A stretch of DNA of 64,000 nt from positions 4,216,001 through 4,280,000 of the forward strand of contig OZ287753.1 in assembly GCA_965649765.1 (NCBI GenBank), written 5' to 3'. Shown one piece after another: positions 4,001 to 29,136 of the stretch (position 1 is its first letter; every line of letters begins with the position of its first letter). The DNA is from Bispira polyomma (taxonomy: Eukaryota). The notes under the pieces are model-generated. The model did no database searches. It saw only the letters and a program-made list of their open reading frames with translations, and had not been told where the DNA came from. Both the position numbers and the translations under genes were made by a program.

Positions 4001-7000
4001 AGCTTGTAAACTGCTCACTTACTGAGGGACATGTACCTGATGGTTTCTTTTGATAAAACATATTGCATAAATATAAAGGCAGTTATTCAGATCACCTTAA
4101 CTTATGATGGAAAAATGTAAATAGCAAGGCTCATGAAATGGACCATTACAATGATTGAAATCAGAAAATTTCGGCTCTTTACAAACTCAGCATCCACAAA
4201 AGTCAGCCTATCACAACAAATCGGATATAGAGACTGTTTCAATATAAATACTGAAGTCTAAAGGTAATATTTCAAACAATTGCTTCAAATTATGCATACA
4301 ATGTAAAAATATTTACTTAGTATTAAAGCATGACCTTCTCATTAAACTTTTCTAAAATTACCCTATTATTCTCCATGTTTTGAGTGGATTTATTTTATAT
4401 TATCTGGAGGACTGATTATATCAAATTAATGATGTCCTATTACAGCATGCAGCGACCATATTGCTAACTGCACTGAATGCCAGAATCAAGACAGCACCAT
4501 TGTGTGTAGTGGATGTAATGCAGGATATTATTTAAAGGAAAAGGAATTCTGTGAAGGTTTGAGTTATTGTAATTTTCAGTTGTCAGATATCATTTATTTA
4601 TTTTCTATTAGTTTTAAAATACTTGATCATAACATCATTACTTTCAGTACAGATTGCAAATATTTTGCTCATTTAATCCTGATAACAGGACGTGAAAACT
4701 ATTGATTTAACTTATTTTGGCAGAAGCACAGTCCTTGTTACAAAACCATTTTGAAAAACCAGACTTTCTGTCACTGGTGTATCTGAACAGGGTTAATGTA
4801 GCAAATTAAACTTCTAAACCATAAAATATGTGCTTGCTAAACCAATCAAAGAGATAGAAATGTACTATCACACTAATAAAATTTGTTTGTGCTACTAGTA
4901 ATATTGCAAATTGGTATTATCTCAGTGCTAAACATTCCACAGAATGAAATGATTAGAAATATACAATTGTAAAAGTCAAATTGCACAAGTATAAAGCAGT
5001 AACACCATAATATTCATGCTCAGTCTGTTGGAATAGCAAAGTACAAACTGTTATAAGAAGCTTACAACCAGATAAATGGTTGTTTACACACACTTATAAC
5101 TGAACTACTATTGCTGTTATGACTCTAATTTCCTTCGGCAGGGAACTGCTCATCATAAAATGACACAAAAAATTTCACATTAATGAAAAACTTAAACTGT
5201 AGATGTTATGATTCTGAACAAACCAATGAGTTATAATGTACATTTAGCCTGTGACATAAAACTGAGCAACTGTAAATACTGCCAGTGGGATGATGGAAAT
5301 GATGACAACAAGCCACAGCTTGTCTGTACACAGTGTGATGAGGGCTACTTCTTTGATTTTTACCACAGATGTACACGTATGTTTAGTATTGATTTCAACT
5401 GTATTTAGCATATTAATGTGTTGGAGCTTTTGTCTAAGCTTTTATATACAGCCTATGATCAGAGCCCTTAATTATAATTTGGGCACTGGCAGCTAAAATA
5501 GATATTTTAGTTCATACTATTTAATGCTTGCTAGTACAGCAGACTTCTCTGCTCAGAAAAGTAATATGAAATTGTTATTGAATACTGCCAGTAGATATGT
5601 AGCCTGTTACCCTGTCCTAAAAGGGTTATCTTATTTTTAACCTGGAATCAATTTACAATAAATATTCATTGTTTAGGTATTAGACAACAACATATATGGT
5701 TTTGCAACCTAGCTGCTATTAAGAACAAATATGTAAACAATTATTATTATGAATTTTTAACGTGCTTTATTAATGCTAGGCATCTTCTAAAGTGCAACAG
5801 CAGAATCATTAATCCAACCATAAAGCCATAGGAATAGCAAAGTCGTAAGGAAAGAAGTGGGAGTGTGTATAAGGGAAGCTTAGGTGGGTAGGCACGGTTA
5901 AAAAGATAGGTTTTAAGCTTAGGTAGTTTTGAATGGACTGGAGCTTTTTGGTGTGTGATTTATTTACTCTGAACAGAAGAGAGTTACAGTAGTCAAGGTG
6001 GCTACTAACAAGGGCGCTAGCCACAGTTATCGCTGTGTCCATTGGCAGGTGGTTTCATATTTTTTTGATGCTGCATATATGGTAATAACAGAAGCAATAG
6101 ATGTTAGTAATATGAGTTTCAAACGAAAAGCTGAGGTTTTTGGCATTTTTGGAAGGTAGTATTTTCCCAGAAGGGAGATGGGGAACAAAGATTTTAAGTA
6201 TTCACTGTTTTTCTTGTTTCCAATGAGAATGAATTCTGTTTTGTCCGGGTTTAGTTTTAGTTTGGAGTAGTTCATCCACGCCTGGACATTGGACAGACAG
6301 TCTCCAAGTAGGTCAATATTTTATTTTGCGTTTTGAGGGTTGAGAGAGAAATAGACTTGAGTGTCATCTGCATACATGTGGTGTTTTATGTCATGATTTG
6401 GTGACAGTGCTGAGAGGATGTGTATAAAGGGTGAAAAGTAGAGGCCCAAGGACGGATCCCTGAGGTACTCCATATGGTGGGTTTATGGAAGAGGATAGGT
6501 GATCATCTAATTTCATTATTTGCGCTCTAAGATTAATGTAGGATCTGATCCATTTAAGGACACTGCCATTTAGTCCAAACCACTGCTTGAAAGTGCAGAG
6601 CCATGATGGTGTAGAATGCTGCTGAAAGATCCAGAAGAGTAAGGGCCACTGTTTTCGTTGCAGTCCAATTTAATATATTAGTTATGGGTGTGATTAGAAT
6701 GTCAAGGCATTGAATTAGAATAACTGCTGGGATAGGATCTAAATCACAAGATTTTATAGAGGAGGATTTTATGAGTTTAAAAACTTCCTGCTCGGACAGT
6801 GTACTGAATTGAGGTTGGAAACCTTATACTCTGGGGTTGGAGGACAAAAGTGATACATCTTTACAAAACCGTCACCAATGTTGCTGTTTTTTAATGAAAA
6901 ATTTTCAAAATTTATCCGCTAGAAATGTAAGACAATGATTTATGGGAAGAACTTTCTCGGATGTTCTGTGCAGAATTTTGTTAATAAAGGCCCATAGCCT

Positions 7001-17260: not shown

Positions 17261-17442
17261 TGTTATCTTGTGCGATTTTTACATTATTTATTTGAAATCA
17301 ATCCATCATTTCAGTTTAATTGTTTATAAAATAAAAGTGCCTTTGCACAGAAGGTTATTTCAGTGTTGACATTGCGTTTCTTATAACTGGAATAATCTTG
17401 AACTAGCAAGTGAACCACAGGAAACCACAGAAGACTCGGATC

Positions 17443-17785
17443 TTGACCTTTTGTAAATTTCAAATAATATATGTTGTGGTAAACCTTAAGCATGACACTT
17501 CATAAGATTTATTATTTGAAGTTGGGATTTGTGATGACCTTAAGGGTATGAGTTTGACCTTTTCTGATTTTCAAATAATAAATGTTGTGGTAAACCTTAA
17601 GCTTGACACTTCACAGCATTTATTATTTGAAGTCGACATTTGTGATGACCTTAAGAGTATGAGCTTGACCTTGTTTGATTTCCAAATAATAAATGTTGTG
17701 GTAAACCTTAAGATTGACACTTCACAACATTTATTTTTTGAAGTCGACATTTGTCATGACCTTAAGAGTTTGAGCTTGACCTTGT
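17443..17785. repeat. 111-bp tandem repeat x3 between the converging Harbinger genes
   Basis: TTGTGGTAAACCTTAAG recurs at 17474, 17585, 17696; it accounts for the repetitive part of ORF 17548-18039. Confidence 0.9.
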
Positions 17786-17799
17786 CTGTGAGACCTTCT

Positions 17800-18271
17800 G
17801 ACTCCAGCCCAATCCAGTGGCAGAAGGACAGTCTGGGGTTGTTGGCCACAGACATTGGCACCAAATCGTTGCATTCAGAGGTGGCAAAATGGTCTCCCAG
17901 CTGTATTATGGCATCATCCACCCTCCAGCCAGTAACCTTGGTCTTGAACCCTGGGCAGCGCTGCGCTGGCTTGGGCTGGCCTGACCAGCATGGCTGGAAT
18001 CAGAAAGGTTGGGGTGCGTGGGACTTGACTCTGCCCTGACATCAAAGAAGGAGCTGTGGCCAGATTTGAGATCTCGTCATCGTCCTCCAGGTCATCTATG
18101 TTTTAACTCTCCGAACGGGACACCAGATGCGCTTCTAGGAATTTGAGTGATGATAGTGTCCACCTCTTGCTAGCAGTTGTAGCCTTGGTTGCCTGGCCCG
18201 ACTTTGTTTTCTTTTTCAGCTTTCCACATATAGAGTCCTCATTGACTTGAAGCAGGTGTTGATCCAGTCAC
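17800..18271 (-). pseudogene. Harbinger MADF/Myb-SANT ORF, exon 2
   Basis: After acceptor ttttgcatcag: DWINTCFKSMRTLY/GKLKKKTKSGQA...WTLSSLKFLEAHL, the second half of a MADF-like domain. Confidence 0.7.
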
Positions 18272-21045
18272 CTGATGCAAAAGTACAAGTACAGCTGTTA
18301 AGTTTTGTTTTTTATATAAGTAACATTAAGCAACTTTGGGACGGCGAATGCTTTATTACAGGTTCAAAAACAAATGCACGTGGCGTAGCAATTCTTTTGA
18401 AAAATAATTTTGAATACAATATATTGTTATGTAAGAAGGACACAAATGGAAACTGTATATGTCTAACATTGAAAATAAGTACTATGACAATAAATTTAGT
18501 ATCAATTTATGCACCAAACAAGGACAATCCCAATTTTTTCACAAATATACAAGATATTTTGCAGAGCAACGATGCCGATTACCACATAATATGTAGAGAT
18601 TTTAACTTGGTAATGAATCCCACAAAGGAGACCAATAACTATAAACATATCAATAACCCTAGATGAAGAATGTCTGTGTTAAATATGCTAAATACATTAG
18701 ATTTGGTTGATATTTATAGACAATTGCATCCTGAAACCTGTCGGTATACCCGGAGAAAAAAAAATCCTATGAAACAAGCTAGACTTGATTATTTTTTGGT
18801 GTCAAATATCATGGCCGATATTGTAGACAAATGTGACATTAAGCCTGGATATAGATCAGACCACTCAGTTATACAGTTAGAAATAGTAATAAATAAATTT
18901 GAAAGGGGTAAAGGAATTTGGAAACTGAACAACAGCCTCTTGAAAAATCCAAATTATCTAGATAATAAACAAGGTCATAAATATAGAAATCCCTAAATAT
19001 GCAGTACCTGTATATGACCCGTCTTATTTGGAAAATACAAACAATAACATTTCACTAACAGTTGATCAGGACATGTTCCTGGAACTATTACTTCTGAGAA
19101 TAAGGGGAGAGACTGTAAAATTTGGCACTAGTTTGAAAAGAAAAAATCATAATAAAGAACAAGAATTGTTGAAGGACATAGAGTACCTGGAAATACATTC
19201 AAACACTCAATTTCCCAATTTGGAACTATTAAATGACAAAAAGATGGAATTAGAGGCCCTAAGAGGGCTTAAACTTAAAGGTCAACAAGTACGATCCAGA
19301 TTACAATGGCTCAGTGAAGGAGAAAAGCCCTCAAAATATTTTTGTAATCTAGAAAACAAAGGTTATGTTGAAAAAACCTTTAAAAAAATCAAACTAGAAA
19401 ATGGAGGTGTAGTATATGATCAAAAAGAATTGTTACAGCAAGCTAGAATGTACTATGTAAATTTATTTAAAAATAGAGACATTCAATTAAACAGTGTGAT
19501 CCTTGAAGACATTCCTAAAGTTGCAGAAATTGAGAAAGTTGATGATGACAGTTTGGGAGATGTCATCAAAGTTCATGAGCTAAGTTATGTCTTAAAAAAT
19601 GAAACCAAATAAAACTCCGGGTATAGATGGTTTTACGTCAGAATTTTTAAAAGTATTTTGGGGAAAGCTGAAGTATTTTATTGTTGATGCAATTAACTCC
19701 TGTTTAAAAAAGGTACTTTGTCTACAACCCTTCGTCAGTGTATTATAGTCTGTTTACCCAAAGGGAATAAGGATAGAAGTTTAATCAAAAACTGGAGACC
19801 TATCTCACTGTTATCTGTGATATATAGGCTTGCTTCGGGTGCAATAGCCGAGAGACTGAGGAAAACATTAGATAATATTATACAAACACACAGACGGGAT
19901 TCCTATCAGGTAGATTTATAAGTGATAACACCAGATTAATATATGATCTGATACATATTCCAGAAACTAAGAATATACCTGGACTATTGATGCTGATCGA
20001 TTTTGAAAAAGCTTTTGACTCTATTTCTTGGAAATTTTTATATAATTTTCTTCTTTTTTTTGGATTCAGTAGAACCTTTATTAATTGGATAAAATTATTT
20101 GATATAAACATCAAAGCTTCTATTCTTCAGTGTGGTTTTTTATCTGAAGAAATTCCAATCGAAAGAGGTCGTAGACAAGGTGACCCCATTTCTTCATATT
20201 TAGTTCTTGTAGGAGCTGAGATACTGTCATTAGTGGTAAAATTAAATCCAGATTTTGTAGGTTTTAAATTTAAGGAAAAAGAAATAAAGCTAACACAGTT
20301 TGCAGATGACACTACCTTAATTCTAGATGGATCCAAGCACTCTCTGGAAACAGCCTTAAATATTTTGGAGATATTTGGTAATTTTTCAGGTCTAAAAATG
20401 AATATGGAAAAAACAAAAGTTATATATATAGGTCGGAAACACTTCTCAAAAGTTAATCGAATCTCCAAAGCTTGATTGGGGCCAATCAGAATTTTCACTA
20501 CTAGGAATTGAATTCTCTACTGATCTAAATGCCATGCTAAATAAGAACTATTTGGTTGCCCTTGAGAAAATCAAAACGGATATTAAAAAATGGAAAAATA
20601 GATTCTTGACCCCTTTGGGCAAAATAACATTGATAAAAACAAAATTGTTATCAAAACTCATTCACCTTCTCACAGCTTTACCAACACCAAAGTGTTTCCT
20701 AAAATAAAGAAATGATGTAATGTATAAATTCCTATGGAGTGAAAAACCTGATAAAGTTAAAAGAAATACAATATGTGCTAATTACTTCGAAGGGGGTCTA
20801 AAAATGATAAATGTCTACCACTTTGAAAAGTCATTAAAAATAACTTGGCTGCGAAAAATATTGTTCCAAAAAGAATCTTTATGGAGTACTATACTGACTG
20901 AAGTATATGGTAATTTTAAAAAATTAGCAACACTAGGTGGCGATTGGTGTACCACAGTATCTAAAATTGGAACCAATGCTTTCTGGGCCCAAGTATTTTG
21001 ACACTGGGCATATTTATGTCAAATAAAAGCTGTTTCTTCAAATAC

Positions 21046-21262
21046 GGGGGCTAGAGCGTTGGCAGCACTAGATGTCAGTCCTGGGAGTGACACTGAATGA
21101 ACCAACCCCTCATTTCCCCTCTGGGGTCTTTATAAGTTAATGACTAATGTTCTCTTTTCAGGGGCTTATGCATGCCAACACCGGCTGCTGGCTATAAAAA
21201 CCCCTGTTTTCTGGTGTAAAATTATCAAAATTCATTTGCCACACAAAGTGCTGTTCAAAATT
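21046..21262 (+). repeat. Split direct repeat A1 (217 bp, matches 26641-26857), contains TATAAAA at 21194
   Basis: Direct sequence match. Confidence 0.95.
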
Positions 21263-21492
21263 GTGTCATCCAATTTTGGGGCCCTACTTCTGCTACTTCT
21301 CCAGCACATTGGCAAATGTCAAAACAACTTAACAAGATTGCAAATGGATTTTAAATTATTTTAGTCTTTTAATTATCTCATATCATTTACTTGTAAATAT
21401 TTTCATATGTAAATTCACTTGTTGGAGGTTTGGTGGCAGAAAGAGGATCCCTATGTGTTATTGTGTTTATAAGCTGTGATAAGTTATTTAAA

Positions 21493-22800
21493 ATGGCCAC
21501 GGCCTACTGTCGGAAATGTGGAATACATCACACTCGACCTGTAGGAAAAAACTGTACACGGGATATTCCTGACTTAAGTTGTCCCTCCACTCCACCAGGT
21601 GTTAGAGGACGACCTCGCAAGCGAGCTGAATACACAGAAGCGGAGGTAGTTTCGGATACTTCCCCTCGAGTCTCTCAAGGTGACTCCAATAAGCTTGATT
21701 TTATTATCAGTAAGCTCCAGAGTCTAGAAGAACGTGTCAATGAAGTACAGAGGGACCATAGGACCAAGAATGTCACTTTTCCAGACACTGGGCGTCACCC
21801 CAGACGTCCGTCTCCCGAGAGAGCCGGTTATGTGCCTGACAGGAGCAGCAGGGCCTCACAAAGCTCGCCTACCCGGGCAGGATATCATCCTGAGAGTTCT
21901 GAGGGCAATGAAGGCCCGATGGCTGACAAGGATTGGGAACGCCTGATGGATGATATCGATTCTGATCGCCGAGGGGGCCTGCCTGTTTCGACCAGAAGAT
22001 CCCGAGCTGCTGCCGCTGAGAGAGGACGACGGGAAGATGACAGAGGTGCTGATGCGGGACTATATGATCATTTGGACTCTGAGGATTACTTATTACCTAG
22101 CCAGCAATATTTACGCACGAGCGACTATATACAACGTCAAGTTGACGCGCGCCTTCAACGTCACAAAAATAGGCTGGCCTCCTCACCTGAGGAATTAGGT
22201 AAGAAGTTAAAGTCAGGGTTGCACCGTACTGGTGAACATACTATTAAAAAACATATTAACTGGCTCCATGAGCACTGTTATGTGAATTCGAGTCGGAAAT
22301 ATCCTGCTTATGAAGAACTGACTCCACTCATGTGGTTTCAGGGATTCTTGCAGTGCATGATCGAAGAGCCGGAAAATATTATTAAAGACCACATGATGCA
22401 GTATGGGGTACAATTAATGAGAGATGCCATGGAGACTTCCTGGTATACAGCGAAAAGTGCCCACTGCGTATTACTTTTGGAAATGGAAAAAGGTAAAGTT
22501 GATTGGCAAGATTTAAAAGCCGTGCATGACATTAGGGCTCGTCTCACCCAAAGAACCATAAAAGAAAGTGGTCGTGATTCAGCCCCCACTGTTTCAAAAA
22601 ATAAAGGCAAAATTGTTCCTTGTACCGCTTACAACAAAGGTACTTGCACCCAAACAGGTGACCACACTTTTGCGGGTATGACTTTAAAGCACGGTTGTTC
22701 AAAATGTTTTATATCAACAAAGAAATTCAGTGCTCATAGGGAAATAAATTGTAAGGGTCCGGAAAACGGGAAAGGCCTCCAGGCAGCCCCAAAAGTGTAA
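21493..22800 (+). CDS. Gag-like ORF1 of YR retrotransposon (435 aa)
   Basis: First ATG at 21493 in AAAATGG context; N-terminal CRKCGIHH...C and C-terminal CTAYNKGTC..H..HGCSKC...H..C Zn-binding-like motifs. Confidence 0.85.
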   Translation: MATAYCRKCGIHHTRPVGKNCTRDIPDLSCPSTPPGVRGRPRKRAEYTEAEVVSDTSPRVSQGDSNKLDFIISKLQSLEERVNEVQRDHRTKNVTFPDTGRHPRRPSPERAGYVPDRSSRASQSSPTRAGYHPESSEGNEGPMADKDWERLMDDIDSDRRGGLPVSTRRSRAAAAERGRREDDRGADAGLYDHLDSEDYLLPSQQYLRTSDYIQRQVDARLQRHKNRLASSPEELGKKLKSGLHRTGEHTIKKHINWLHEHCYVNSSRKYPAYEELTPLMWFQGFLQCMIEEPENIIKDHMMQYGVQLMRDAMETSWYTAKSAHCVLLLEMEKGKVDWQDLKAVHDIRARLTQRTIKESGRDSAPTVSKNKGKIVPCTAYNKGTCTQTGDHTFAGMTLKHGCSKCFISTKKFSAHREINCKGPENGKGLQAAPKV

Positions 22801-24983
22801 TTATTAAGTCAAAAACTTTTTGGAACACAGCTTGGCTGGAGGCATATACTGAAACAAAAAATTTAAACAAGAATAGAAAACTCAATTCTGAAAAAGTCAG
22901 GTTTTTAGGGTTTAAGAAAGGTAAACAAGGGGATGTCAAAAAATTAGAACAAAAAATCCCTCCCACCACTACCCTTACAATTGATTCAAAATCAGTAAAC
23001 AAAGTATCAAAATGTCAAAATGCCTGTGTTCAAAAAGTTTGTCATACTGTTCAGCAAATCTCGTCTTCCCCTCCAAAAAAGGGGAATATTGCTGTAGTAC
23101 AAATTTCTCCAAAGTCGCATTTGGTTCAAAACTCTACTGCTGTTCATTCAGTCAAAACTCGGGGGAACCCCCCTTCAAAATCAATCAAAAATGACATGTC
23201 TGCAGTAATGCAAACAACCCATGACAAACAAACGTTTGTAAAAACAAATGACAATTTTGGGTTTATGTGTTTATATAAAACAGTTTATAGTATTCCAAAC
23301 CATACCAATGACCTTAAGTATACAACTTTGGAACAATGGGCCATTCTTTCGAATGCCAGGGTTAATCGATATGGCTGCCCCAATTACTTGGGAGCTCGCT
23401 TGCCAGTCCCCTCAGAGTTAAATATTCCTCAATGGAGGAACTTGTTGCAAGGTGACCCGGACATATTACTACCAGAGTATTTAGAATTTGGGTTTCCTTT
23501 GTGTATACAAAAACAGGGTTTTGTGTTTAATACTATAACAAAAAATCATGACTCAGCGTTACAGCATCCACAAAGTGTAGATGAATATTTCATAACAGAA
23601 CGTTTGCACAAAGCCATAGCTGGTCCTTTTTTAAATGACCCATTTGAGAAATTACATTTTTCTCCAGTTATGACTCGACCAAAAAGTGATAACACCCGAA
23701 GAATCATAGTTGATTTGTCTTGGCCTCACAATAATTCTTCTGTCAACAATACAGTATTGAACGGAGTATATGACGACCACGAGTTTCGTCTCACCCTCCC
23801 AAATATAGACATGTTGGTTGACAAAATCAATGAACTGGGTCCTAATTGCCTATTATATAGAATCGATTTATCTAGGGCGTTTAGGAACCTCCGTATTGAC
23901 CCAGGAGATTATAATTATGCTGCCCTTAATTGGAAAAATAACACCTACATTGACCTCTCTGTAATGATGGGGTACAAGCACGGCACGGCATTATGTGAAA
24001 AGACCACTGATTCATTACGTAGGCTCATGAATACTAAAGACTATCAAATTTACAACTACATCGACGATGTATTTGCGGCTGACACCCCAGAAAAATCAAA
24101 ACAATCATTTGACACGTTATATGACCTTATTCAAAAGTTAGGCCTTCCAATAAATCCTAATAAAGTGGAAAAGCCAGCTGAGTCAATTACTTGTATGGGC
24201 ATTATAGTAAATGCACGCACGGGAATATTGGAAATCCCCCAACAGAAAATGACTGATATATGTGATATGTGTAATCAGTGGCAAGGCCGTTCTCTTTGTA
24301 CTAGACGCCAACTTCAGTCCCTATTAGGAAAATTGCTGTACATACACCGATGTCTCAAACCAGCTCGGTTGTTTTTAAACAGAATGTTGGCATTACTAAG
24401 AGATTCCTACCCAAGTGTGAACATCACATTGAATGATGACTTTAAAAGGGACCTTAATTGGTTTCACGTCTTTTTACAACACTTCAATGGTATTGTAGAA
24501 ATGCACACAAATGACACCCCTAACAATGAAATGTTTGTGGACGCTTCCCTCACTGGTGTAGGGGCTGTGTATAATAACAATGTATATGCCTCCACTTATC
24601 CTGAAAACAAACCAATTCACTTTAGTATTGTTCACTATGAAATGTGGAATGTCTTAGTTGCATTAAGAAAGTGGGGACACCTTTGTAAAAACACGGTGCT
24701 GAACATTCATTGTGACAACTTAGCAGTTGTTCAAACTCTCAATTCGGGAAAAATTAAAGATAAATCACTGGCATTGATTGCTAGAGCTATATGGTTACAG
24801 ATAGCCATATACAATATAAAATTGTTATTATCGCATGTACCGGGTGGAAATAATATAATTGCTGACTGTTTGTCTCGGATGTTTTCCCCTTTGCCTATAA
24901 AACTAAAAGTTTCAGCCGAATTAAAAGGAAAAACTTGGTGGCCTGTCACTAAACAGGATTTTACACTGAATTACAGCATTTAA
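22755..24983 (+). CDS. RT/RNase H ORF of YR retrotransposon
   Basis: Frame open from 22755, further upstream than the track shows; RIIVDLS, IDLSRAFR, YIDD, LQSLLGKL, FVDAS, HCDN, IADCLSR. Confidence 0.93.
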   Translation, partial: GSGKRERPPGSPKSVIIKSKTFWNTAWLEAYTETKNLNKNRKLNSEKVRFLGFKKGKQGDVKKLEQKIPPTTTLTIDSKSVNKVSKCQNACVQKVCHTVQQISSSPPKKGNIAVVQISPKSHLVQNSTAVHSVKTRGNPPSKSIKNDMSAVMQTTHDKQTFVKTNDNFGFMCLYKTVYSIPNHTNDLKYTTLEQWAILSNARVNRYGCPNYLGARLPVPSELNIPQWRNLLQGDPDILLPEYLEFGFPLCIQKQGFVFNTITKNHDSALQHPQSVDEYFITERLHKAIAGPFLNDPFEKLHFSPVMTRPKSDNTRRIIVDLSWPHNNSSVNNTVLNGVYDDHEFRLTLPNIDMLVDKINELGPNCLLYRIDLSRAFRNLRIDPGDYNYAALNWKNNTYIDLSVMMGYKHGTALCEKTTDSLRRLMNTKDYQIYNYIDDVFAADTPEKSKQSFDTLYDLIQKLGLPINPNKVEKPAESITCMGIIVNARTGILEIPQQKMTDICDMCNQWQGRSLCTRRQLQSLLGKLLYIHRCLKPARLFLNRMLALLRDSYPSVNITLNDDFKRDLNWFHVFLQHFNGIVEMHTNDTPNNEMFVDASLTGVGAVYNNNVYASTYPENKPIHFSIVHYEMWNVLVALRKWGHLCKNTVLNIHCDNLAVVQTLNSGKIKDKSLALIARAIWLQIAIYNIKLLLSHVPGGNNIIADCLSRMFSPLPIKLKVSAELKGKTWWPVTKQDFTLNYSI

Positions 24984-25970
24984 TATAGTTTCACATTTCC
25001 AGGTTCTCCTTCAGAAAACCTCCTGTATTCAGCTGCTTTAACAAGACTTCCCCATGCCTGCACAGAGAAGACTTCTCAATCTTATTTACAATGTATTAGG
25101 TTATATTTAGCCCTGGCAATAGCATTACCAGTGCACGATTATACAACTACGAAATACATCTTAGTGTTTTTGGAATACTTAACTCAACAAGGACTTAAGC
25201 CTCCTTCTATTCAAAATTACATTTCAGCTATAAAGTTTTACTTTAAATTATGGAATATTTCCACTCTCCCATTTAACCACCCCCAGATTAACTTGTTCAT
25301 GAAATCAATAACCCTTTTAACCCCTTATAACCCTCGTTTAAAATCCATTATCTCCATTCCCATACTAAAAGACATTATCAATCAATGTGAAAAATATCAT
25401 AATGCACACGTGTATCAAGCTATTTTCCTTACAGCGTTTTTTGGTTTCTTTCGTATTTCCAACCTTGTACCTTCATCCATGTCCACATTTGACCCGGTCA
25501 GACACCTCACAGTAAGTGACCTTGTTTGGGGTCACCCAGGAGTTCATATCATCCTGCGATGGGCAAAAAACCTGCAACGCTATAATCAGTTCCATGTGGT
25601 GCAGTTACCTTTCATAAGAAATTCATCTTTATGTCCGGTTACTGCCCTTCTTGTAATGTTGCACTTAAATAAGCCCAAACCTTCTTCCCCTTTGTTCACT
25701 GAAAGCAAACATCCACTTGTACCTATCACTCAATACAAAGTGAGAAAGGTCTTACGTCAAATTATATCGACATTAGGCTTGAACCCACAAGCCTTCACAT
25801 TTCACGCTTTCCGTCGCTCTGGTGCGACCTTTGCCTTTGAAAATAATGTCAACCTCCAATCCATTATGGTTCATGGGGGTTGGCGTTCTCAAGCCGTCTG
25901 GGCTTATCTAAATTCAACACCAAATGCTGCAGCGACTGTAGCTACCTCACTTCAACATATTCTACAATAA
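24984..25970 (+). CDS. Tyrosine recombinase ORF
   Basis: Catalytic set R (FFRISNL), K (WAKN), HxxR (HAFRRSGA), HGGWRS, Y (VWAYL); frame opens right after the RT stop and has no N-terminal ATG. Confidence 0.93.
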   Translation, partial: YSFTFPGSPSENLLYSAALTRLPHACTEKTSQSYLQCIRLYLALAIALPVHDYTTTKYILVFLEYLTQQGLKPPSIQNYISAIKFYFKLWNISTLPFNHPQINLFMKSITLLTPYNPRLKSIISIPILKDIINQCEKYHNAHVYQAIFLTAFFGFFRISNLVPSSMSTFDPVRHLTVSDLVWGHPGVHIILRWAKNLQRYNQFHVVQLPFIRNSSLCPVTALLVMLHLNKPKPSSPLFTESKHPLVPITQYKVRKVLRQIISTLGLNPQAFTFHAFRRSGATFAFENNVNLQSIMVHGGWRSQAVWAYLNSTPNAAATVATSLQHILQ

Positions 25971-25994: not shown

Positions 25995-26640
25995 TTGGGG
26001 CAATCTTCCTTTACATATTTACCTTTTATATTGTCATTTTCTTATGTATATATGTTTTATAATGTTATGTCTTATCATTAATGCTTATTACCAGTAATGT
26101 TACTACACCCTTGAGAAAGGATGACTTTAAGGTAACCATACATTAGATAAGCGTAAACTTTTATGTCGCATGCTTTGATGTTAATTGATTAATTCAGTGT
26201 AAATATCAACCAATTTATAAATGCATGCTCTATACTGATTGTGAATTGCTTACAGCATAAATCACTTAGTTTTAATTAGTAAATGATTCATAGTTGCAAT
26301 GATGCACGATAAGTGCATATATGTAAAACTTAACTAGTCAGAAAATAATATGTCATATTAGTGTAAATGTCTATTAAGCTGTTATAACATTGTGAATGTC
26401 TATTAAGCACAGATAAGTGCATTAGTTATTAGATTATCTGTGTAACATATTATTTTCTATCAAAAAGTTGTATATATACTAGTGTTAGATGCTAATTTTA
26501 GTGTAGATGTGTAGAATTAATAAAGCCCAAAGAGTGCCTGTGTATGACTTGGTGTTTCCTTCCTTGTTTCTCAGATTACAGCATAAATTATCACAAAACA
26601 AATATTACATATCCATACTTCAATGGATTGACATGGACTG
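25995..26640 (+). repeat. Split direct repeat B1 (~646 bp, matches 27429-28074)
   Basis: Direct match at offset 1434; AATAAA at ~26519. Confidence 0.95.
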
Positions 26641-26857
26641 GGGGGCTAGAGCGTTGGCAGCACTAGATGTCAGTCCTGGGAGTGACACTGAATGAACCAA
26701 CCCCTCATTTCCCCTCTGGGGTCTTTATAAGTTAATGACTAATGTTCTCTTTTCAGGGGCTTATGCATGCCAACACCGGCTGCTGGCTATAAAAACCCCT
26801 GTTTTCTGGTGTAAAATTATCAAAATTCATTTGCCACACAAAGTGCTGTTCAAAATT
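26641..26857 (+). repeat. Split direct repeat A2
   Basis: Matches A1; abuts B1 to form the circle-junction sequence. Confidence 0.95.
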
Positions 26858-27428: not shown

Positions 27429-28074
27429 TTGGGGCAATCTTCCTTTACATATTTACCTTTTATATTGTCATTTTCTTATGTATATATGTTTTATAATGTT
27501 ATGTCTTATCATTAATGCTTATTACCAGTAATGTTACTACACCCTTGAGAAAGGATGACTTTAAGGTAACCATACATTAGATAAGCGTAAACTTTTATGT
27601 CGCATGCTTTGATGTTAATTGATTAATTCAGTGTAAATATCAACCAATTTATAAATGCATGCTCTATACTGATTGTGAATTGCTTACAGCATAAATCACT
27701 TAGTTTTAATTAGTAAATGATTCATAGTTGCAATGATGCACGATAAGTGCATATATGTAAAACTTAACTAGTCAGAAAATAATATGTCATATTAGTGTAA
27801 ATGTCTATTAAGCTGTTATAACATTGTGAATGTCTATTAAGCACAGATAAGTGCATTAGTTATTAGATTATCTGTGTAACATATTATTTTCTATCAAAAA
27901 GTTGTATATATACTAGTGTTAGATGCTAATTTTAGTGTAGATGTGTAGAATTAATAAAGCCCAAAGAGTGCCTGTGTATGACTTGGTGTTTCCTTCCTTG
28001 TTTCTCAGATTACAGCATAAATTATCACAAAACAAATATTACATATCCATACTTCAATGGATTGACATGGACTG
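27429..28074 (+). repeat. Split direct repeat B2
   Basis: Matches B1. Confidence 0.95.
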
Positions 28075-29136
28075 GGACATTTCTGAGTCGTGCTTATGGT
28101 GCAATAGCCAAATTTCAAAAAATATTTTTTTTATTTTTCACAAACTGGTATAAAAAGGGAATAAATTTTGTTGGTGATGTAATAAATTCAAAAGGAATGA
28201 TCATTAGTCATGATGAAATAAATAGACAGTTTAATACTACTGTGAATATTCTAGACTACTATAGAGTAAAGTTATCAGTAAAAACTTTTATAAAAAAATT
28301 TAAAAATGATAGTAACTTCTCGTACTGTAGACCTACCTTACCATTTCACCTAAAAGTACTATCCAAATCCAGTAAACGTTGTAAAGATTTTTATACAGAC
28401 TTTTGTGAAACTGATAAACAACTTCCTCAGTGTAGATCAAAATGGTCAGGTAGGTTAAATATTTCCAATGAAGATAACATATGGATGAATATTTTCAAAG
28501 CCTGCTTCAAGGCTATACAGGAAAACACGATTATTTGGTTTTAATATAAAATCATCTTTAACATATTGGATACTAAAGAATATTTACACAAAATAACGGT
28601 TTCTGATACTGATACTTGTAGTTTCTGTAAACAGCACCAAGAAAGTATTCAGCATTTGTTTATTCATTGCCCATATGTGAATGATCTATGGAAAAATGTT
28701 CAACAGTGGATTCGTAACAAACTGGCCATAGATATAGAACTCAACAAAAAACTACTCAACAAAAACTTTAGGATATTATAATCTTGATGAAACTTTTTGG
28801 CCTTTAAATTTTATACTTATAATAACAAGGTTTTATTTATATACATTGGTGTTCCAAAAAAAAACTTTTAGCTTAAACATATATTATCTTCAAAAGTTGA
28901 TAATGAGAAAGTTTCAGAGATTAATTTTATGAATGCAAAGTTTATGAAAAGATGGGAAGTGTGGCAAAAGTTGTTTGAAAATGTTTAAATGATTTCAAAT
29001 AAGTTTAAAAAAATAATGTCATATTATATATTTAAATGGTTAATGTGTGTGCCTTTGTCAAAGAACATAGTGTGAATGTGATAATTATGTAAAATTGTTA
29101 TCTTTTAGAGCCAGTAATTACCGTCTTATGTATGGT

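Follow-up and report, generated by a model that had tools for sequence, protein, structure and literature searches.

Ngaro elements (order DIRS) are described as carrying a Gag-like gene, a reverse transcriptase with RNase H (RT/RH) and a tyrosine recombinase (YR) in that order on one strand (PMC4157794; PMC3783388; PMC8547959; PMC9210276; PMC3266345), with split direct repeats placed around their open reading frames (ORFs) as A1-ORFs-B1-A2-B2 and with no methyltransferase domain (PMC4157794; PMC8547959). Their YR lies in frame or frameshifted with respect to RT-RH, splicing being unmentioned in the portion of that report available to us (PMC3783388), and in the accessible parts of the literature it is treated as a separate ORF. 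The retrotransposon analysed here occupies positions 21046 to ~28076 of a 64,000-nucleotide (nt) stretch of the Bispira polyomma genome (assembly GCA_965649765.1, contig OZ287753.1, 4,216,001 to 4,280,000, forward strand; "the window"). It shares the Ngaro gene order, the split direct repeats, and the lack of a methyltransferase domain. In contrast to the described elements, its recombinase gene seems to form a second exon on the N-terminal half of Gag, and comparison with relatives indicates that the recombinase of this Ngaro-like element is probably produced from a spliced RNA encoding a fusion of the Gag N-terminus and YR (GagN-YR). The coding regions and predicted splice signals are the following.

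21493–22800, + strand: ORF1, Gag-like, 435 amino acids (aa) from its ATG, with aligned relatives and no Pfam family
22755–24983, + strand: ORF2, RT and RNase H, 742 codons from stop to stop (PF00078, E 2.8e-12, above the cut-off; PF17917, E 0.0016, below the cut-off)
25003–25970, + strand: YR exon, with core-binding (SAM-like; PF13495, residues 25–88) and catalytic (PF00589, residues 175–304, above the cut-off) domains
22196–22204, + strand: predicted phase-1 donor, TAG/GTAAGA, in the Gly codon of the motif G-K-K-L-K-S-G
22199–25002, + strand: predicted intron of 2804 nt, containing the C-terminal half of Gag and all of RT/RNase H
24985–25003, + strand: predicted phase-1 acceptor, a T/C-rich tract and CAG/G (context TTTCACATTTCCAG/G), with the exon starting at 25003
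24980–24984, + strand: TTAAT, in which the RT stop codon overlaps a branch-point pattern, 20 nt before the exon

A sequence-only reading of the window had proposed this splice, and recomputation reproduced the donor and acceptor coordinates, their phase, and the in-frame join: exon 1 (21493–22198; 706 nt from the ATG at 21493, ending in phase 1) and the YR exon together encode 557 aa, free of stops until the final one. The donor boundary (22198/22199), which that reading had called strong, comes top of the 318 GT dinucleotides of the element when scored with an approximate donor weight matrix. The YR frame had been said to lack an ATG until well inside the domain; its first Met is codon 106 (25299), beyond the core-binding domain, which would be cut off if translation started there. 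The RT stop codon (TAA, 24981–24983) and the YR are in the same frame in the window copy. The branch-point consensus is YTRAY, and this pattern is present 12–45 nt upstream of the acceptor in 16/21 family representatives versus 16/53 other YAG sites. As for the acceptor, described earlier as good, it is conserved, but its strength taken alone is moderate: a crude T/C score puts it fourth among the 101 YAG sites. Judged from the window by itself it stays within chance, and comparison with relatives takes it beyond chance.

For this comparison 80 diverged copies were fetched from the same genome; the first 60, together with the window, gave 59 mapped loci (L043 and L044, in which the YR start was unmapped, were omitted), which fall into 21 families when grouped at 85% nucleotide identity. 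At the equivalent place a phase-1 YAG is present in 73/79 mapped loci overall (56/59, and 17/20 further loci) and in 20/21 families, the misses among the first 59 loci being two deletions and one point change. Of 692 Pol codon positions, none does better than 12/21 families. The families that keep the acceptor phase are 41–83% identical in YR. The codon bearing the A of the AG always ends in A, though it encodes Ser, Pro, Ala, Val, Leu, or Thr, and protein similarity begins at the split codon, the residues between the RT stop and the AG not being conserved. The spacer from the RT stop to the AG measures 6–19 nt (L068, with a spacer of 23 nt and a premature stop, is omitted from this range). 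Because the YAG is fixed while the overlapping amino acid varies, and because the spacer spans all three frames, the acceptor is, on this comparative evidence, under selection, and splicing to 25003 is highly probable.

The same border bears on whether the YR might be translated from unspliced RNA, as a Gag-Pol-YR protein, by stop-codon readthrough or frameshifting between RT and YR. In the window a single TAA separates the two in one frame, these same elements recode at the Gag/Pol border, and the in-frame or frameshifted Ngaro YR described in the accessible part of PMC3783388 would suit such a route. Among 18 representatives, however, RT and YR share a frame in seven and take the other two relative frames in six and five, and this offset changes freely on the tree (9 changes versus a mean of 8.8 for shuffled labels, with the 3 to 4 families that have no locatable RT stop omitted). 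Readthrough or frameshifting would fix the offset, and an acceptor does not, so that the free offset argues against either as the general route. Readthrough at 24981–24983, named in the sequence-only reading as the outcome opposed to splicing, fails in most relatives, in which the RT/YR frame differs. With no readthrough or slippery signal evident at the border, a fixed YAG there, and unconserved amino acids from the stop to the AG, we find this route scarcely credible.

The acceptor can also be followed in other organisms. Ten of 20 metagenome loci, from relatives with 30–45% YR identity, show the start of the YR, and at that start all ten carry a phase-1 YAG together with a pyrimidine tract; near-duplicates among the loci (L084/L085 and L093/L100) reduce the number of independent cases. 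Among homologous proteins, the footprint expected from reading through YAG/G, [SPTALVI]-[GD], occurs in 22/26, versus 1–7 in nine shifted windows, the 26 being those of 266 database YR homologs that have both the anchor motif and an N-terminal extension. None of the 266 YR homologs matched the Gag profile, and the longest is an RT-YR fusion; a Gag query of protein databases gave no match, and no relatives were found among viral contigs. Two individual loci are of separate interest. In L084 (945–3796) a second gag and RT follow directly after the YR, suggesting tandem elements. In L071 (G000:C10:5040370-5045270), a 219-nt deletion at base 4496 has its right end no more than one base away from the YR acceptor; its left end is GG, not GT or GC, and it may represent a copied-back non-canonical splice product, or chance.

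On the Gag side, the KSG motif was located in 45 loci, and in 43 of these its S-G is preceded by a phase-1 GT at a distance of 14 or 17 nt. This GT is kept in 19/21 families, the donor region not having been found in the other two. The Gly codon at the donor (residue 236) is always GGT, versus 30–31% at 23 other conserved Gly sites of Gag/Pol (highest 12/19), and the site ranks 1–4 of ~200 GT sites in 12/15 family representatives scored. Conservation of the acceptor and of the donor at G-K-K-L-K-S-G, to both of which the sequence-only reading had pointed as checks on its proposal, was thus found, in the case of the donor partly forced by the protein sequence. Near this site, five dispersed copies (L153, L155, L157, L163, and L164) share the same short gag deletion just after the KSG motif, which suggests a non-autonomous subfamily.

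Several observations weigh against the proposed splice. The evidence for the donor, taken from sequence comparison, is weaker than that for the acceptor because the amino acids (G-K) partly force the donor sequence, and two Cys-Asp/Glu sites in Pol keep a phase-1 GTGA in 16/19 and 17/21 families versus 15/18 for the donor by the same BLAST mapping. The window gag has additional phase-1 donors at 21680, 22493, and 22658, and the best phase-1 donor of each of four distant Gags lies at another codon (ranks 3/63, 2/83, 1/48, and 1/54 among GT sites). This shift of position, the partly forced conservation, and the nearly equal scores of several phase-1 donors would be in keeping with a real acceptor that is joined mainly to another gag donor (22493, 22658, or upstream 21680). 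Only the residue-236 site, however, is kept across families, the next-best phase-1 gag site reaching 8/20, and its high rank in most representatives argues in the same direction. We consider a different main donor unlikely, and splicing from 22198 probable.

Also on the opposing side, an in-frame upstream ATG is present in 7/21 families, as might suit a YR translated from its own start (by re-initiation once the RT stop has been passed, at a near-cognate codon, or from a promoter inside pol), the AG being kept for other reasons. In the other 14/21 families the open YR frame offers no in-frame upstream ATG, and in the seven that have one it sits at differing places (4 to 49 codons, or within a fused RT frame). 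An own start would, moreover, leave the fixed YAG, the wobble pattern, and the pyrimidine tracts of distant relatives unexplained, and we judge it very unlikely.

A further group of opposing observations comes from searches for spliced copies, in which the best 150 candidates were scored. No genomic copy minus exactly this intron was present among 33 and 40 close site-spanning matches. Four junction-pattern scans gave 1, 1, 0, and 2 matches versus 1, 0, 0, and 5 for controls, which is chance level, and the four matches have no Gag or YR homology. Sixty further gag-bearing loci, which match the pre-donor peptide and are absent from the donor-spanning list, are ordinary or deleted copies, none of them spliced. 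Five loci considered as spliced copies were rejected: the long YR open frames of L034, L032, and L101 are RT-YR fusions that arose by deletion or stop loss, and L123 and L178 are deletions or rearrangements missing the sites. In three contig runs from one study, the 22198–25003 joint was not among the joints listed (15 of 23; 15 of 20); these runs behave like DNA, since intron, exons, and the flanking long interspersed nuclear element (LINE) are covered alike and the empty site is present.

In the spliced model that we favor, a subgenomic RNA would join the first 235 Gag codons to the recombinase exon, with the C-terminal half of Gag and the whole of RT/RNase H removed as an intron of 2.8 kb. 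The unspliced RNA would be both the genome and the message for Gag, and a −1 frameshift at G GAA AAC would let it encode Gag-Pol as well. The fusion would retain a Cys/His motif and a coiled coil predicted to self-associate, and may thereby be tethered to Gag; the tethered recombinase may in this way reach the cDNA inside the particle. That the coil tethers the recombinase to Gag is a reasonable proposal and, with delivery to the cDNA, the least certain part of the model. The features involved are the following.

21508–21561, + strand: CxxC-x3-H-x8-C motif, a putative Zn site judged from its pattern
21682–21759, + strand: coiled-coil helix, Gag residues 64–89 (helix 65–91 in the model), retained in the predicted GagN-YR
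22761–22767, + strand: candidate −1 slippery site G GAA AAC, in phase in the Gag/Pol overlap and kept in closer families

The Cys/His motif, which the sequence-only reading had put forward as a possible particle-targeting tag, is kept in most relatives; Gag has no such motif in L086 and L088. Since these two distant relatives lack the Zn motif, the N-terminal coiled coil is the likelier of the two as the shared tag. Three copies of residues 55–100 gave a predicted self-association of 0.46 versus 0.04 for the best control, with contact agreement of at least 92% and a predicted local distance difference test (pLDDT) score of at least 62 in the coiled-coil runs. The self-association mark was reached by 21/30 proteins solved as pairs and by 0/23 single chains (eukaryotes 17/29, animals 7/16). 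The weight of this prediction is lowered by three points: the three-copy job lies beyond the calibration of the tool, resemblance to solved structures may be enough for a coiled coil to pass, and among eukaryotic cases with no older solved relative 1/7 passed. The donor site falls in a low-confidence linker (residues 228–250) between the N-terminal half of Gag and a conserved helical domain (~258–362). A search for a solved structure resembling the Gag C-terminal domain, such as a retroviral-type capsid fold, was made with the whole 435-aa Gag model and returned no Foldseek match with E below 0.001, the best Z being 5.3, to generic helical bundles.

The sequence-only reading had derived three products from one ATG. 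Of these, GagN-YR is supported by the comparison, and the frameshift is supported for the window and closer families only, in which Pol lies in the −1 frame relative to Gag and the in-phase GGAAAAC is retained. Families near 55% identity mostly have Pol in frame behind a TGA, often as TGA CAG CCA, and C-rich contexts also occur; TGA CAG CCA resembles a readthrough context of plant viruses. The most distant relatives carry A AAA AAC/T at the Gag/Pol border. The recoding signal thus differs between families (Gag/Pol borders of L021-L080, L081, L083, L086, and L088). Folding downstream of the slippery site is weak and variable, and the frameshift hairpin is not the same across families. Production of Pol by splicing was rejected, there being no conserved phase-1 acceptor in Pol, and Pol is therefore likely to be expressed by recoding.

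The element itself is bounded by two pairs of direct repeats (A, 217 nt; B, 648 nt), each pair 100% identical.

21046–21262, + strand: split direct repeat A1, left element end, identical over 217 nt to 26641–26857
25995–26642, + strand: split direct repeat B1, identical over 648 nt to 27429–28076, with AATAAA at 26519
26641–26857, + strand: split direct repeat A2, pair of A1
27429–28076, + strand: split direct repeat B2, right element end, pair of B1

The gap from A2 to B2 is 571 nt, and the internal repeats lie downstream of the YR. An empty site was seen in three public runs (joint after 21045, right ends at 28075/28079). The insertion target is a decayed LINE (~18100–21045 and 28076–28550), in which endonuclease- and RT-like pieces were recognised by eye; short G runs occur at both insertion junctions and at the B1/A2 joint. 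The 1.04-Gb genome contains 16 element copies that are 99–100% identical in YR, and the family is therefore young. The YR catalytic residues R157, K195, H274, R277, W300, and Y308 (stop-to-stop frame numbering) are invariant in 31 sequences. Pol gave no Pfam match to a methyltransferase domain or to anything besides RT and RNase H (E up to 0.1), and only ~33 Pol codons remain after the RNase H match. PAT-like elements likewise have split direct repeats and a YR; they differ in carrying a methyltransferase domain after RNase H, as described in the available part of PMC4157794, and a PAT-like identity was rejected on this ground. DIRS1-type inverted terminal repeats are absent, as is an internal complementary region (inverted pairs are short and at chance level), and the ends are direct, not inverted, repeats, by which a DIRS1-like identity was also rejected. 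Its structural marks make the element a Ngaro-like YR retrotransposon, and a young one, the RT tree comprising loci of this genome only. The window ORF list, taken without a profile search, contains no SGNH hydrolase ORF.

Other observations concern the leader, the A repeat, and the flank. The leader contains ten ATGs ahead of the Gag start (21072–21455). The A repeat (21137–21162 and 26732–26757) has an acceptor-like stretch with a branch-like CTAAT, a T/C tract, and CAG/G; a pattern search of those A repeats that were recovered in other families did not find this stretch. At 17431–17788 the window contains a tandem repeat with a unit of ~111 nt, its copies 83–91% alike.

The conserved splice, if used as proposed, corrects the protein model from a 220–330-aa ORF to a 557-aa fusion and suggests a route by which the integrating enzyme could reach the cDNA outside the Pol polyprotein. 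It would let the host splicing machinery and silencing pathways influence how much recombinase is made relative to genome RNA. The model is testable by a single junction, for which the young family is a favorable test case. We lean, with some reserve, towards a wider reading in which Ngaro-type elements across animals are three-product, splice-regulated systems: the YR would never be a free ORF but a second exon on the Gag N-terminus, the coil would load it into the particle, and the recoding mode would flip freely between frameshift and readthrough. The annotated YR ORFs of the Ngaro-type group would then all be N-terminally incomplete. Introns have been noted in some fungal YR elements.

The element class is well known, and its way of expressing the integrating enzyme is likely to be undescribed. 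In the parts consulted of the literature searched, there is no report of a spliced Gag-YR product (PMC7192593; PMC6681497; PMC4157794; PMC9341512; PMC8547959; PMC5633606; PMC3783388; PMC9210276; PMC4495291; PMC4276936; PMC3266345; PMC5890265; bioRxiv 10.64898/2026.05.21.726589; PMC5580714), and the route of Ngaro YR expression is not explained there. Related strategies are nevertheless described, again as far as the accessible parts of the sources extend. The errantivirus gypsy produces gag-pol by frameshifting from the full RNA and expresses its third gene via a spliced subgenomic RNA that drops pol (PMC4276936), as proposed here; in gypsy, however, the gene so expressed is env, and gag is absent from the spliced RNA, whereas here that RNA would encode the integrating enzyme together with 235 Gag codons. 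In plant Ty1/Copia elements, conserved alternative splicing inside the retrotransposon likewise sets a protein ratio through a short GAG RNA (PMC5580714). The Ty1/Copia splice yields Gag alone, with early termination, in contrast to the splice predicted here, which would skip RT to give a Gag-recombinase fusion.

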